Below, in pieces: positions 36,035-40,971 of a stretch of DNA of 64,000 bases. The notes below the pieces were generated by a model that was not told the origin of the DNA, made no database searches, and saw only the letters and a list, made by a program, of their open reading frames with translations. The stretch is taken from NCBI GenBank assembly GCA_965198225.1, contig CBDAOY010000009.1, forward strand, positions 864,001 to 928,000, in the 5' to 3' direction. The position numbers and the translations under genes are program-made. The stretch's first letter is position 1, and every line of letters begins with the position of its first letter. This stretch comes from Terriglobia bacterium (GTDB lineage Bacteria; Acidobacteriota; Terriglobia; 20CM-2-55-15).

Positions 36035-37366
36035 CTATGACGGTTGTTCCTCCGATGCCTCCGTTTCGGACAGGCTTCCCGCAGGGACGAAGTTCGCCAG
36101 CTCCTGGACCATCCCAAGCACCTTCCTGTTGCGAATCTGGCCCTTGATACGATCCAACCCGTCGTTCTTGGTCAGGATCTCCCGGACATTTTCCTTGGGT
36201 CGGCCCATCTGTCCAGCGATCGCTTCGATCTCTCGTTCGATTTCTTCGTCCTCGACCTCGATCTTCTCGCGTTCGGCCAGATGTTCGAGAATCAGTGAAC
36301 CCCGCACGTCCCGGACCGCCTGTTCGTACTGATCGGCCCGTATCCTGCCCCAGTCCACGTCCAGACCCTGAGGGTTGACACCCTGCTGGGACAGCTCGCG
36401 CATCATGCGTTGGAGTCGTGTCTGAAGCTGTTGCTCGACCAGCGAATCCGGGACTTCGAACTCGTTGTTGTCTTCCAGCCACCCGAGGATCGCCTCGTGA
36501 GTCTGCTCGTCCGCATGGTGCCGGCGGTGCTGTTCCAGGTTCTCACGCACGTTGGCCTTCAGGTCGTCGAGCTTGTCGAAGTCGCCCAGGCTCTGAGCGA
36601 AATCGTCGTCGAGCTCGGGACGGTGCTTTTCCTTAATGGAGTCGACCTCTACCGTGAAGTGGGCGTTCTTCCCTGCGAGGTTCTTGTCCGGGTGGTCGTC
36701 CTTGTATACGACGTCGAACGTCGCTTCCTCCCCGGCCTTTAGTCCGGTGAGGTTTTTGGTGAACTCGCGCAGAGTCGTCTCGCCTCCGATCTCACAGAGT
36801 GCCTTCTCTGCGGAGAGGTCCGGGGCGTCGTCGCCGGCATCTTCGATGGAGCCCGTGAAAGAAATCTCGACGAAATCCCCATCCTTGATCTCGCGGTCTT
36901 CCTCGACGGGCGTCATCTCCGCATGCTCCTCGAGCATCCGCTCCAACGCCTGATCGATTTCGGCGTCCGAGACTTCGGTCGGGATCTCTTCGACAGGAAT
37001 CCCCGTGTGGTTCGTGACGTCGAGCCGAGGGTAGACCTCGAAAACGGCCTTGAAGCTCAAGGCTTCGCCGTTGTCGTAGTCGACATCCTCATAGCTGGGT
37101 GCGTGGACGACATCCAGGTCCTGCTCCCTTGCGGCGTCGGAGAAGTACTTTGGCAACAGGCTCTGGAAGACTTCGGAGAGAATGTCGTCCCGGTAGCGGT
37201 TTTTCACGACGCCGAGCGGCGCCTTGCCCGGTCGGAAGCCCGGTACCCGGGCGCGGCGTCGGAACTGCCGCGCGACCGATGTCACTTCTCCGTCGACGAC
37301 TTCCGGAGGGATCTCGATGTCGAGGCTTTTCTTTACAGTGCTGATGTCGGTCAGTTCTGCCTTCAT
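36035..37366 (-). CDS. tig: Trigger factor
   Basis: VPGFRPGKAP ribosome-binding motif; tig-clpP-clpX-lon synteny. Confidence 0.95.
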   Translation of the reverse strand: MKAELTDISTVKKSLDIEIPPEVVDGEVTSVARQFRRRARVPGFRPGKAPLGVVKNRYRDDILSEVFQSLLPKYFSDAAREQDLDVVHAPSYEDVDYDNGEALSFKAVFEVYPRLDVTNHTGIPVEEIPTEVSDAEIDQALERMLEEHAEMTPVEEDREIKDGDFVEISFTGSIEDAGDDAPDLSAEKALCEIGGETTLREFTKNLTGLKAGEEATFDVVYKDDHPDKNLAGKNAHFTVEVDSIKEKHRPELDDDFAQSLGDFDKLDDLKANVRENLEQHRRHHADEQTHEAILGWLEDNNEFEVPDSLVEQQLQTRLQRMMRELSQQGVNPQGLDVDWGRIRADQYEQAVRDVRGSLILEHLAEREKIEVEDEEIEREIEAIAGQMGRPKENVREILTKNDGLDRIKGQIRNRKVLGMVQELANFVPAGSLSETEASEEQPS

Positions 37367-37512
37367 ACGGGGCGATCGTGGTCAGTGGTCCGTTGCAAGT
37401 GGTCGTAGCGGGTCACGGCCAACCCGCGCCCAGCCCTTCGGCATTGGGGCAACCCCTCACCGCTGTGAACCGATAGCTGAGGGGAATTCGGTCTCCGTCC
37501 CCGATTCCCCCA

Positions 37513-37594
37513 TGCGAAAGGAGGGACTCGAACCCTCATGGGTTGCCCCACTGGATCCTAAGTCCAGCGCGTCTGCCAATTCCGCCACTTTCGC
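37513..37594 (-). tRNA. tRNA-Leu(TAG)
   Basis: GCGAAAG-TGGCGGAATTGGCAGACGCG-CTGGA-CTTAGGA-TCCAG, long variable arm, GGTTCGAGTCC, CTTTCGC-A; CCA not encoded. Confidence 0.95.
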
Positions 37595-37708
37595 GTGTCT
37601 TCCAAATCAGTGACTTGCCGAATCCTATCACTTTCACTTCTTTCGTCGATGGGGGATCTTGTGGGGGACTCGACTCCCAATGTTTGGAAGTTTTTCGATG
37701 GCCCGTCG

Positions 37709-37733
37709 CTAGTAACCTGTTACAGGCCACCAG
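37709..37733. mobile_element. Collapsed family-A MITE (fused ends)
   Basis: CTAG-TAACCTGT-TACAGGCCA-CCAG. Confidence 0.5.
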
Positions 37734-37914
37734 TAGTCCATCGAGAGACGAGTATACCGTATCGTCATCTCCGGGTCCTCATGTCCCATCAGCCCCATCA
37801 CGGCCTTCTGGTTCACATCGGCCATCCCAGGTACGATACGAAGCGGGGCCGCAGACGACGAAAGCGGAAATAGTTCAAGCCGGCGCGATCGACGGCGTTT
37901 GCGGATGTGGTTCT
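37732..37914 (-). pseudogene. Tyrosine recombinase/integrase C-terminal remnant
   Basis: Hand translation: RTTSANAVDRAGLNYFRFRRLRPRFVSYL, frameshift, then MADVNQKAVMGLMGHEDPEMTIRYTRLS; matches the FHDLRHTFAS...LGH...T.RY pattern. Confidence 0.75.
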
Positions 37915-38078
37915 CCGCGGTTACGCCTTTTTAACCCGTGACAACATGCATCAAAGAAAGGCACCATACCGCCGACCCCATGGTCGGCCTGTTCTTCGTC
38001 CCGGGCCCACCCTGCGATGGCCAGGGTTTGAACTGCCACGGTGAGTGAGAGGATCGGGCCACGTAGAGGGTGCGCAGC

Positions 38079-39364
38079 ATGGATGAAGTCACAGTCGGGA
38101 ACGTCGTCATTTCCTGCGACAATCATCGTCTGACCTTCAAGAGCCGAGAGGACCCGCGCCGGCAAGTCACGATCTCCGCGGCCTCCCTGCCCGACGTCCT
38201 CTACTTTCTTCAGAGTGTCAACCCCAGTGGGAGCGACCAGCGTGTGGCTTTTCGCGTACCGCTTGACCGCAAGAGCGCCCTCAGAACCACCCTTGGGGTC
38301 GGCAGTTTACGGTTGCCGGTTTGGGCTGTGGACATCAGCCTGTCGGGGATGCTGGTGGAAATGCCGACCAGTCTCCACGAATTGACGATCGGGTCTTCGG
38401 TGGAAATCACTCTCGAACTCGATATGAAGTCTGCGACGCTCGGCAACGAGGGAAGTTCCGGCCGTTGGGCATTCCGTGTCTCCGGGATCGGGTGGTGCAG
38501 ACGGCGGCGATGCTCTGGACGCTTTCCCGGCTCGGACGTGTGCCTATGTAGGCGGCACCCGTGTCCGGCCGGTAGTTGCAACCAATCCGGTAGCCGAGGA
38601 ACGTCATCGATTCCTCCGGCACCCGGCAGCAGCGGGTCTTCTCAACGTTCATCGCCAACTTCAGACGTTTCATCAGGGCTTCGACCGCCGCTAGCATTAC
38701 CGCTGCCGGCGCGCGACCGATCTCGCCGCTGTTCAGCAACATCTACATGCGGCGCTTCATTCTGGGCTGGAAGGTGCTGGGCTACGCCCGGCACTTCAAG
38801 GCGGAAATCGTCAACTACGCGGCCGAACCGCATGCGGCCGATAGGTCCCTTCCTTCAGGTCCCGCGCCAGTGCTCCCAGCCACCGGTCTACCCCAAGCGC
38901 CTCGATGTCTCCGACCGTCTCGCCGTCCACCCCGGCCGCGCCGCCGTTGCGGCGCACGGCCTGCCAGGCGACTGCGAGCACGTCGTCGCGCCACACCTTG
39001 TCGCTCAGAGAGTAGAACCGGAAGCCCAGAGCTTCCTTCGCTTTCGCATGTAGCGCCGTCTGGAGTCGCTGAACTCTCTCCGAGGCTGTTAGGCTCTCGC
39101 CAGTCCTCATGTCCCTTCCTCCGTCATGCGCTGCTCTGCGTGCCGGTCAATCGCCTCGTAGGCCGGGCTGACCTGTCCCAGGGTGAAGTAGTTCGCCCAA
39201 CCGGTCAGCAACCGGTTGAGGCGTCCCACTACGACCTCCGGCGGCAGGAGCGCGGGATCATATTTGCGGACTGCCAGATGGAAGGGGATCTCGACCCGCC
39301 AGGCTCGCTCATGGTCATCTTCAGGGCGCTTGAAAGGACATGGCTCGCCAGGAAAGTAGAGTAA
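38079..39364 (+). pseudogene. PilZ-domain protein interrupted by scrambled RT fragments
   Basis: QRVAFR (RxxxR) and DISLSG motifs up to ~38440; the probable C-terminus GIIFADC...RKVE* resumes at ~39255. Confidence 0.65.
38441..39254. mobile_element. Shuffled fragments of a group II intron reverse transcriptase/maturase
   Basis: RPLGIPCLRDRVVQ (+), LKLAMNVEKTR...FLGY (-), ISPLFSNIYM...VNYA (+), AWQAVRRNGGAAGVDG (-), LNRLLTGWANYF (-). Confidence 0.88.
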
Positions 39365-39420
39365 GGAGATAGGAACACGCGCGCCTTTCTTTTCTGAGCC
39401 GGGAGTATCGCCGATTCAGG

Positions 39421-40560
39421 ATGCCCAAGACCGGAGAACAACCCACTCGGAGTTACCGCGCCCGGGTTCTCATACTTGGCGCGGGTGTCGCGATTGTCCT
39501 CTCGATTCTTCCCGATGTCGCAGGGTCGACGCCCGCCGAGGCGCGGTCCCAGGACGCCCCCGATCGCTCACACTTGCGGGTCGTCACAGCGGGAAGCGCG
39601 CCCTTTGTCATGGCGAACGGCGCCGGTGGGGCTGAGGGTCTGAGCCTCGACGTGTGGTCTGCGATCGCAGAAGACCTCGCCCTCGAATACGAGATGGTCC
39701 CGGCGGAGGGCATCTCGGAAGCGATCGACATGGTCGCCGAGGGGCGTGCGGATGTGGTCGTGGGCCCTGTCAGCATCACCGCCGATCGCTCCGTCCAGGT
39801 CGAGTTCACCCAGCCCTACTTTAACGCGACTCTAGCTATACTGGCTCCGGCCTCCAGAAGCCTGCTCGACGGCATTGCGCCCTTCCTGTCGAGGGCCTTC
39901 CTTACGGGCATCTTTTTCCTGCTCGGGATACTTCTCGTCGTCGGAGTTCTGCTGTGGATGGCAGAACGGAGGGCGAACGCCGAACACTTTCCGGATCGTC
40001 CACTGGCGGGAATCGGGAACGGTATCTGGGCCGCCCTGGTAACGCTGACGACCGTGGGCTACGGAGACGTCGTTCCCCGCTCGCTCGCGGGACGAGTCGT
40101 CGCCGGCGCCTGGATGCTCATGTCCGTGGTCGTGGCATCGTCGTTTACCGCGTTTATCGCCACGGCCCTGACGCTTTCCCAGATCGACACGGGATCGATA
40201 TCGACGGCCGGGGATCTCGCCGGGCGGCGTGTAGGTTCGGTTGCCGGTACGACTTCGGCCGAGTTTGCGTCCGAAAACGGAGCTCGTCTCCAGGCGGTGG
40301 CGGACATAGACGCGGCGTTTGCAGATCTTCAGGCTGAGAGAACGGAGGCGATCGTCTTCGACCGCCCGATTTTGCGATACCTGCTCGCCCGGAATCCCGG
40401 CACCGACTTTCTCATTTCGGAGCCTTCTTACCGTCCGCAGGGCTATGGGTTTGCCCTCGCTATGGACTCTGCGGTTCGTCAGGAGATAGTGGTCGCTATT
40501 CTGCGACTGCAGGAAAGCGGAGAATTGGACGCGATCGCTGAGGTTTGGCTGGGACCCTGA
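39421..40560 (+). CDS. GluR0-like channel: amino-acid-binding (PBP2) domain split by a K+ channel pore
   Basis: PF...G...D...ISITADR...FTQPYF (S1), TM, TLTTVGYGD filter, TM, then GTTS...FD...YGFA (S2). Confidence 0.85.
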   Translation: MPKTGEQPTRSYRARVLILGAGVAIVLSILPDVAGSTPAEARSQDAPDRSHLRVVTAGSAPFVMANGAGGAEGLSLDVWSAIAEDLALEYEMVPAEGISEAIDMVAEGRADVVVGPVSITADRSVQVEFTQPYFNATLAILAPASRSLLDGIAPFLSRAFLTGIFFLLGILLVVGVLLWMAERRANAEHFPDRPLAGIGNGIWAALVTLTTVGYGDVVPRSLAGRVVAGAWMLMSVVVASSFTAFIATALTLSQIDTGSISTAGDLAGRRVGSVAGTTSAEFASENGARLQAVADIDAAFADLQAERTEAIVFDRPILRYLLARNPGTDFLISEPSYRPQGYGFALAMDSAVRQEIVVAILRLQESGELDAIAEVWLGP

Positions 40561-40695
40561 AGAAGCTATCAGCCTTCAGCGTTCAGCTTCCGAACGAAAG
40601 CTCAAAGCTGAGTGCTGATCGCTGATGGCACGCATGATCCCCTTGGATCACCCGGTAACTCTTTCCTACCGCCCGGCCTTTGCCACGGCCCCGAT

Positions 40696-40971
40696 CTAGT
40701 AACTCTTTCCTACCGCCCGGGAGTCAATCGGCTTGGCCTCGTTTACCTGAAGCGCACCGCCTTCCAGTTCCTGTCCATGCAGCTCTTCGATCGCTGAGCC
40801 CAGCTGCGATTCGTCTTCCAGTTGGGCGAAGCCGAAGCCCCGGGGCCGTCCGGAGTCGCGGTACGTCAGGATGTGAACCGACTCGAGGGGATATCCCCGG
40901 GATTCGATCCACTCGTGGAGATCGTCGTCAGACACCGAATAGGGAACGTTACCAATGAAGAGTTTGGGCAT
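40696..40971 (-). CDS. RNA-binding protein (single RRM)
   Basis: KLFIGNVPY (RNP2), RPRGFGFAQ (RNP1), VNEAKP; the tail is affected by a 22-bp duplication. Confidence 0.9.
   Translation of the reverse strand: MPKLFIGNVPYSVSDDDLHEWIESRGYPLESVHILTYRDSGRPRGFGFAQLEDESQLGSAIEELHGQELEGGALQVNEAKPIDSRAVGKSY

Follow-up and report, generated by a model that had tools for sequence, protein, structure and literature searches.

Parts of the report by White and Lambowitz (2012, PMC3280974) describe how linear group II introns retrohome with error-prone 5' junctions that are formed by end joining and that show exon deletions, intron truncations and microhomologies. As related in parts of the work on G2L4 and group II intron RTs, such enzymes perform MMEJ in which the two ends of a bacterial break are joined through short microhomologies (bioRxiv 10.1101/2022.03.14.484287; PMC12337344), and portions of the literature on eukaryotic NUMT/NUPT or T-DNA capture describe breaks filled by loose fragments with a small deletion of the target (PMC2567098, PMC7037861, PMC10923293). 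Most knowledge of end joining in bacteria comes from breaks induced in a few model species, and few natural scars can be set beside an empty allele that matches them. In chromothripsis, non-overlapping fragments of one segment, with near-shared breakpoints, are rejoined in random order and orientation, with some fragments lost and little homology at the joints. The locus described here makes available together the sequence before the event, that of the source, and six joints resolved to the single base.

The window, that is, the whole 64,000-nt stretch of DNA that was analysed, is G000:C9:864001-928000, where G000 denotes the source genome. Using BLAST against this genome and base-by-base views of the junctions, we found that window positions 38443-39254 are a mosaic of five pieces of the RT/maturase gene of one group II intron. 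The original prediction of five shuffled, partly inverted RT pieces inside a PilZ gene was thus borne out, and its coordinates were right to within a few bases, with piece B starting instead at 38509 and piece E ending at 39254. A BLAST start of piece B at 38498 was discarded as a spurious extension. Source coordinates below are counted along G000:C5:759471-763086 read in reverse complement, where the intron occupies approximately 1037-2940:

Piece A, 38443-38514, plus strand: source 1836-1907, RT2 region; 72/72 bases identical to 7 genomic intron copies.
Piece B, 38509-38720, minus strand: source 2357-2568, RT6-7; 211/212 identical to C5:760519-760730.
Piece C, 38717-38822, plus strand: source 2236-2341, from RT4 to the first D codon of YADD; 106/106 identical to 7 copies.
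Piece D, 38822-39137, minus strand: source 1501-1816, RT0-1; 316/316 identical to C5:761271-761586, C5:811162-811477 and C6:407946-408261.
Piece E, 39137-39254, minus strand: source 2604-2721, maturase X domain; 118/118 identical to two C5 copies.

Read along the minus strand, the order is E, D, C inverted, B and A inverted. The RT0-7 block names given to pieces A-D are not tool output and are labels that we take to apply. Summed over the five pieces, 823 of 824 bases match a resident intact intron copy at G000:C5:760147-762050, the intact source that the original prediction had proposed to seek elsewhere in the genome; each piece could be aligned to it, with microhomologies at all joints. Chance cannot account for identity of 99.5-100% over stretches of 72-316 nt. 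Pieces B, D and E are only 90-98% identical to the genome's other intron subfamily (90% for piece E), indicating that all five pieces derive from one source lineage.

In the window, the RT/maturase ORF is present only as five pieces on two strands, with 328 nt (RT2a/RT3) missing. Piece E is still recognized by Pfam GIIM (E=2.9e-7), and piece D has the start and ribosome-binding site of its own that had been noticed earlier (ATG at 39110, GGAGG upstream), extending 27 nt past the ATG. Consistent with the earlier remark that intron RNA termini were not recognizable, an Rfam scan of window positions 36900-40800 (E≤0.1) returned no group II ribozyme element, a tRNA being the only match. The locus thus has neither the ribozyme domains and GUGYG end nor the continuous RT/maturase ORF of a functional mobile group II intron. 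A retrohoming or retrotransposition product would be colinear, with the 3' end of the intron joined exactly to the 3' exon and every target base kept; here both intron ends are absent and the target lacks 33 nt.

The source copy at C5:760147-762050, in locus L004, begins with GTGCG, as in full-length copies, and matches Rfam D1-D4 models at 114 and 81 bits, with a D5/D6 match (39.3 bits) just below the 40-bit cut-off. Its ORF of 492 aa matches RVT_1 (112 bits), GIIM (61 bits) and TIGR04416, the NCBIfam group II RT/maturase model (313 bits against a cut-off of 300); no endonuclease domain match was found in this ORF, which continues for approximately 30 residues after the maturase domain. Another group II-like element (Rfam D1D4-6, 114 bits) begins at approximately source 2919 of the L004 copy, and the intron copies at C5:606892-610252, C5:743404-748253 and C4:145572-148399 carry inserts of approximately 1.5 kb at common positions (source 1223/1227 and 1466/1467). 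Together, these inserts and the second element in L004 look like nested, twintron-like insertion. G000 is unusually intron-rich and holds several intron families, with 31 group II maturase-domain matches, most of them in ORFs of 400-580 aa. Copies 95-97% identical to the source intron over up to 1883 nt occur in G040, which belongs to another genus of the same family (for example C2:1625492-1627375), whereas the same-genus genomes G002 and G003 give only 71-76% matches, a pattern of identities that suggests recent lateral transfer of the intron.

Among the 14 clusters of the source intron in G000, the window locus is the only one with mixed strands. The other 13 are each colinear on a single strand and show nested insertions, truncations and deletions, some of which lie at short repeats. 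By eye, no adjacent pieces on both strands were apparent among the matches listed for 29 other genomes of the family, and with 30 intron-RT regions as queries the sole further mixed-strand cluster was a small non-intron scar beside C5:810k. Two internal-deletion derivatives of the intron were also seen: one has lost 134 nt between an 11-nt overlap (C5:811723-811733), and the other lacks the greater part of the ORF (source 1272-2201) and has an overlap of 2 nt (C6:839044-839045); these are further microhomology-type deletions in the source intron family.

The host gene can be read on both sides of the mosaic by comparison with P0013, a 169-aa PilZ protein in the protein collection (precomputed PF07238), and with the ortholog in G002, of the same genus:

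38079-38443, plus strand: 5' part of the PilZ gene, 121 codons and 2 bases; 99% identical to P0013 residues 1-121, 72% identical overall to the G002 ortholog.
39253-39364, plus strand: 3' part of the PilZ gene, 36 codons and the stop, in another frame than the 5' part; 100% identical to P0013 residues 134-169.

Where the window carries the mosaic, P0013 holds the twelve residues GGTVKRRIENRY, and of 157 aligned PilZ residues only one differs between the P0013 strain and the window. The comparison of the flanks with an uninterrupted ortholog, as first proposed, was provided by G002, in which the ORF of 169 aa is intact and has two alignments, to window 38047-38437 and to 39253-39374, separated by 39 nt (82% DNA identity to the 3' part). 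Approximately 809 nt of intron pieces therefore stand in place of 33 nt (12 codons) of a PilZ gene whose intact form encodes 169 aa, with no target duplication, in keeping with the expectation that PilZ resumes after a short loss. Pfam PilZ scores the N-terminal half in the window at 21 bits (cut-off 22.5) and the intact G002 ortholog at 30.2 bits. The two halves now lie in different frames, the ORF is broken, and the window copy is a dead gene, a pseudogene. Just upstream lie a tRNA gene (37513-37594, minus strand; Rfam 60.5 bits) and a 38-aa remnant that matches the C-terminal end of tyrosine integrases (37709-37825, minus strand; Pfam 20.6 bits, below the cut-off), which suggests a decayed integrated element.

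The empty allele was also found at the DNA level. In one contig of run X20, 38443 is joined to 39253 through 33 other letters, which by hand translation are in frame and encode the same twelve residues as P0013. Over 171 flank bases the contig has 6 differences from the window, indicating an origin in a related strain. The original prediction had taken reads of an empty allele as a sign of an assembly or amplification chimera; such an allele does exist, in a slightly different strain, and independent contigs carry the outer junctions of the filled allele, so that the empty allele is a polymorphism rather than evidence of a chimera.

At each of the six joints the two adjoining sequences overlap, by 1, 6, 4, 1, 1 and 2 nt from left to right, and there are zero untemplated letters:

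PilZ flank/A, 38443: 1 nt common.
A/B, 38509-38514: GATGCT common (6 nt).
B/C, 38717-38720: CCGA common.
C/D, 38822: 1 nt common.
D/E, 39137: 1 nt common.
E/PilZ, 39253-39254: CG common with the resuming PilZ sequence.

The A/B overlap had first been read as seven letters, GATGCTC; it is six, within a longer imperfect inverted repeat that matches at 13 of 15 positions. Random joins of the locus sequence share at least 1 nt in 48% of cases, at least 4 nt in 2.4% and at least 6 nt in 0.3%. Four of the six overlaps (1-2 nt) are singly within chance (P(≥1)=0.48), and under the null model the probability that all six reach at least 1 nt is 0.012 and that they sum to at least 15 nt is 0.003. No cleavage motif was evident by eye at the ten fragment ends. 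A direct 11-mer repeat (10/11 matching) lies exactly on two of the six joints, A/B (38507-38517) and D/E (39128-39138), and in source terms AGAGCA occurs both where D starts and where B ends. As there are 8 such repeat families in 1.1 kb, the placement of the 11-mer may be chance.

No two of the five pieces overlap in the source, where neighbours are separated by 19, 328, 15 and 35 nt. When five independently placed copies were simulated, freedom from overlap combined with three or more gaps no longer than 35 nt occurred in 366 of 500,000 trials, and in 483 of 500,000 when placement was confined to the span. In the product, the pieces with near-shared source ends do not lie next to one another. 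Non-overlap and near-shared ends of such pieces argue for one molecule that was broken and rejoined rather than for serial copying.

We accordingly hold, with slightly more confidence than doubt, that the mosaic records one repair, by end joining, of a broken PilZ gene, in which fragments of a single shattered molecule of the intron ORF were captured. Under this explanation, a double-strand break in the PilZ gene would have lost approximately 33 nt and been closed in one event, with five fragments of a single broken molecule containing the intron ORF region (source 1501-2721) stitched in. The fragment ends would have been trimmed by a few to approximately 20 nt until microhomologies of 1-6 nt could pair, and the fragments would then have been ligated in arbitrary order and orientation, with the 328-nt fragment (RT2a/RT3) lost. 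This would leave the PilZ gene dead and the intron mosaic without function. We infer that this was one event and that Ku/LigD or another microhomology-mediated pathway was the joiner. Within the end-joining explanation, a free or ectopic intron DNA or cDNA molecule is the likelier source of the fragments (about two thirds of the weight), and an intron freshly inserted at the site and shattered in place the less likely one (about one third).

G000 encodes candidate machinery for such a repair, with a Ku gene at C8:899556-900419 (164 bits) and a LigD Prim-Pol domain on C5 (291 bits) inside an open frame of 881 aa. An uninterrupted allele, few target bases replaced, no target-site duplication, above-chance microhomology and Ku/LigD genes are the features by which an end-joining filler scar would be recognized, and all are present. 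The explanation leaves two matters aside: it gives no cause for the cutting of a 1.2-kb stretch into six or more pieces, and no reason why all captured pieces should come from one intron.

The second micro-scar in the genome (L003:627-673, equal to G000:C5:810288-810334) lies in IS/transposase-like sequence upstream of an intron copy. Relative to a twin near C5:762k, 346 nt are deleted and an internal piece of 47 nt is re-inserted inverted, with 2-nt overlaps at both joints; as it lies in non-intron sequence, this scar speaks for a general process. An extra stretch of 31 nt at C5:810429-810459 was considered as filler and rejected, since it is also present in the copy at C9:22957 and reflects copy variation.

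We next weighed serial template switching of a copying type (MMBIR/FoSTeS-like, or RT switching and snap-back), in which a polymerase or the RT of the intron would copy stretches of intron RNA, cDNA or DNA and, by five jumps between places and strands, yield a product that bridges the break. Such an origin would fit several observations: every piece is intron ORF sequence, the A/B joint uses the imperfect inverted repeat (13/15), and RT is plentiful in a genome with so many maturase-domain matches. Parts of PMC3280974 report that group II intron RTs switch templates, including to internal intron regions and twice in a row, and parts of bioRxiv 10.1101/2022.03.14.484287 report MMEJ and snap-back synthesis in vitro by a YADD group II RT. 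However, copying need not avoid re-use of a template, yet the pieces show no overlaps and three neighbour pairs lie 15-35 nt apart (P about 1e-3), and the inverted duplications predicted by snap-back are not present at the locus. The same in vitro work, in the sections that concern end-to-end switching, finds RT switching best with a single base pair and longer pairing inhibitory, whereas the joints here include overlaps of 4 and 6 nt. The second scar of the genome is also in non-intron sequence. We therefore regard template switching as unlikely. The original prediction had proposed a break-repair or template-switching scar built from intron cDNA or ssDNA; the break-repair part stands, template switching is disfavoured, and a preference for cDNA or ssDNA over double-stranded DNA is not supported.

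A related and quite unlikely proposal, which we put forward only tentatively, is that the mobile intron's own RT drove the repair, bridging the break through microhomology-annealed fragments of intron RNA or cDNA that it held. If true, RTs of mobile introns, beyond the domesticated G2L4 type, would patch bacterial chromosomes with their own sequence.

The inner arrangement could also be an artefact of assembly, polishing or amplification laid over a real and simpler insertion. The left outer joint is spanned by contigs of X17 and X19 (38000-38472) and the right one by contigs of X15 and X17 (39206/39225-39600), in each case with 0 differences. These contigs come from runs of three studies, one of which runs may be the genome's own source sample, and they reach only 30-49 nt into the repeat, as expected for k-mer contigs. 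Runs X1-X14 and X21-X23 have small shares, and the contig comparison covered the other runs. Since the intron is entered at 1836 in sense at the left joint and left at 2604 in antisense at the right joint, at least one inversion is independently supported. For the inner joints, an artefact finds some room: the intron is multi-copy, the region has a summed depth of thousands-fold in the runs, and the four inner joints were found in the assembly alone, with contigs approximately 100 nt long inside the repeat and, among those listed, none that bridges an inner joint. An exact pattern of 146 nt over the B/C and C/D joints had 0 matches in metagenome contigs and 0 in genome contigs, and a protein search of either set with the N-terminal half of PilZ brought up no relative. 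Two junction-spanning ORFs, of 205 and 324 aa, gave partial protein matches and none of full length, mostly over the intron-derived part, with one being the intact allele P0013. Against an artefact stand the two outer joints themselves, seen without differences in runs of three studies and already demanding non-canonical entry (1836, sense) and exit (2604, antisense); the inner overlaps of 1-6 nt, too short to mislead a k-mer or overlap assembler; and the position of the locus approximately 902 kb into a contig of 1.3 Mb. We consider an artefact improbable.

Colinear retrotransposition into PilZ followed by stepwise decay through inversions and deletions would account for shared breakpoints, which ordinary inversions also yield, and deletions, truncations and nested insertions do mark the other 13 clusters, as with the 11-nt overlap at C5:811723-811733. 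Mixed strands, in contrast, occur in 0 of those 13. The signed order +5 +1 -3 +4 -2 has a reversal distance of 5 from a colinear intron on either strand, so that decay requires at least five inversions and would also have had to remove both intron ends and 33 nt of exon. The pieces are nevertheless still 823/824 identical to the source, and a strain differing at 1 of 157 PilZ residues keeps the empty site. By eye, the lost 33 nt showed no convincing match on either strand to the 5' exon motif of full-length copies. Five inversions set against one difference in 824 bases and a near-identical empty-site strain make stepwise decay very unlikely, and with its six novel joints the locus is, as the original prediction had suggested, not a decayed colinear intron. 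A shufflon or site-specific invertase was rejected, since no recombination-site repeat common to all joints was found.

In a limited literature search, no earlier account came up of a bacterial gene that contains a scrambled, multi-piece mosaic of a group II intron. If the end-joining explanation is right, several fragments can be stitched in together when a bacterium closes a break, a gene-scale counterpart of eukaryotic break-repair mosaics. The locus also provides a search pattern for long-read genomes, namely non-overlapping neighbouring pieces of one mobile element, on mixed strands, at an ectopic site; should such mosaics prove enriched for retroelement sequence, intron RTs would be tied to chromosomal repair in nature. 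For annotation, the locus is a warning that a gene containing intron-RT fragments in both orientations does not necessarily hold several decayed introns.

Like the products of linear-intron retrohoming described in parts of PMC3280974, the locus has intron sequence end-joined to exon DNA with microhomologies; those products are colinear and have a precise reverse-spliced 3' junction, whereas here five shuffled pieces from both strands are joined with no intron end and no extra nucleotides. With the MMEJ described in parts of the work on G2L4 and group II intron RTs (bioRxiv 10.1101/2022.03.14.484287; PMC12337344) it has in common a bacterial break, short microhomologies and an intron-type RT as a possible agent. 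There two ends are joined, whereas here intron-derived filler would have been captured in a genome that also has Ku and LigD genes. Eukaryotic NUMT/NUPT or T-DNA capture, as covered in portions of PMC2567098, PMC7037861 and PMC10923293, resembles the locus in that loose fragments fill a break with a small target deletion, and differs in that the locus is in a bacterium and its fragments are non-overlapping neighbours from one 1.2-kb stretch of a mobile intron. Truncated or degenerate intron copies are alike in their origin from the same intron family and in being non-functional remnants, and differ, in the other 13 clusters of G000, in being colinear and on one strand. The general pattern of chromothripsis, in turn, is matched by the source gaps (19, 328, 15 and 35 nt) and the signed order (+5 +1 -3 +4 -2). 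In contrast to chromothripsis, the scale is 70-316 nt rather than kilobases to megabases, a cause of the micronucleus type is inapplicable to a bacterium, and the product lies at another locus than its source.
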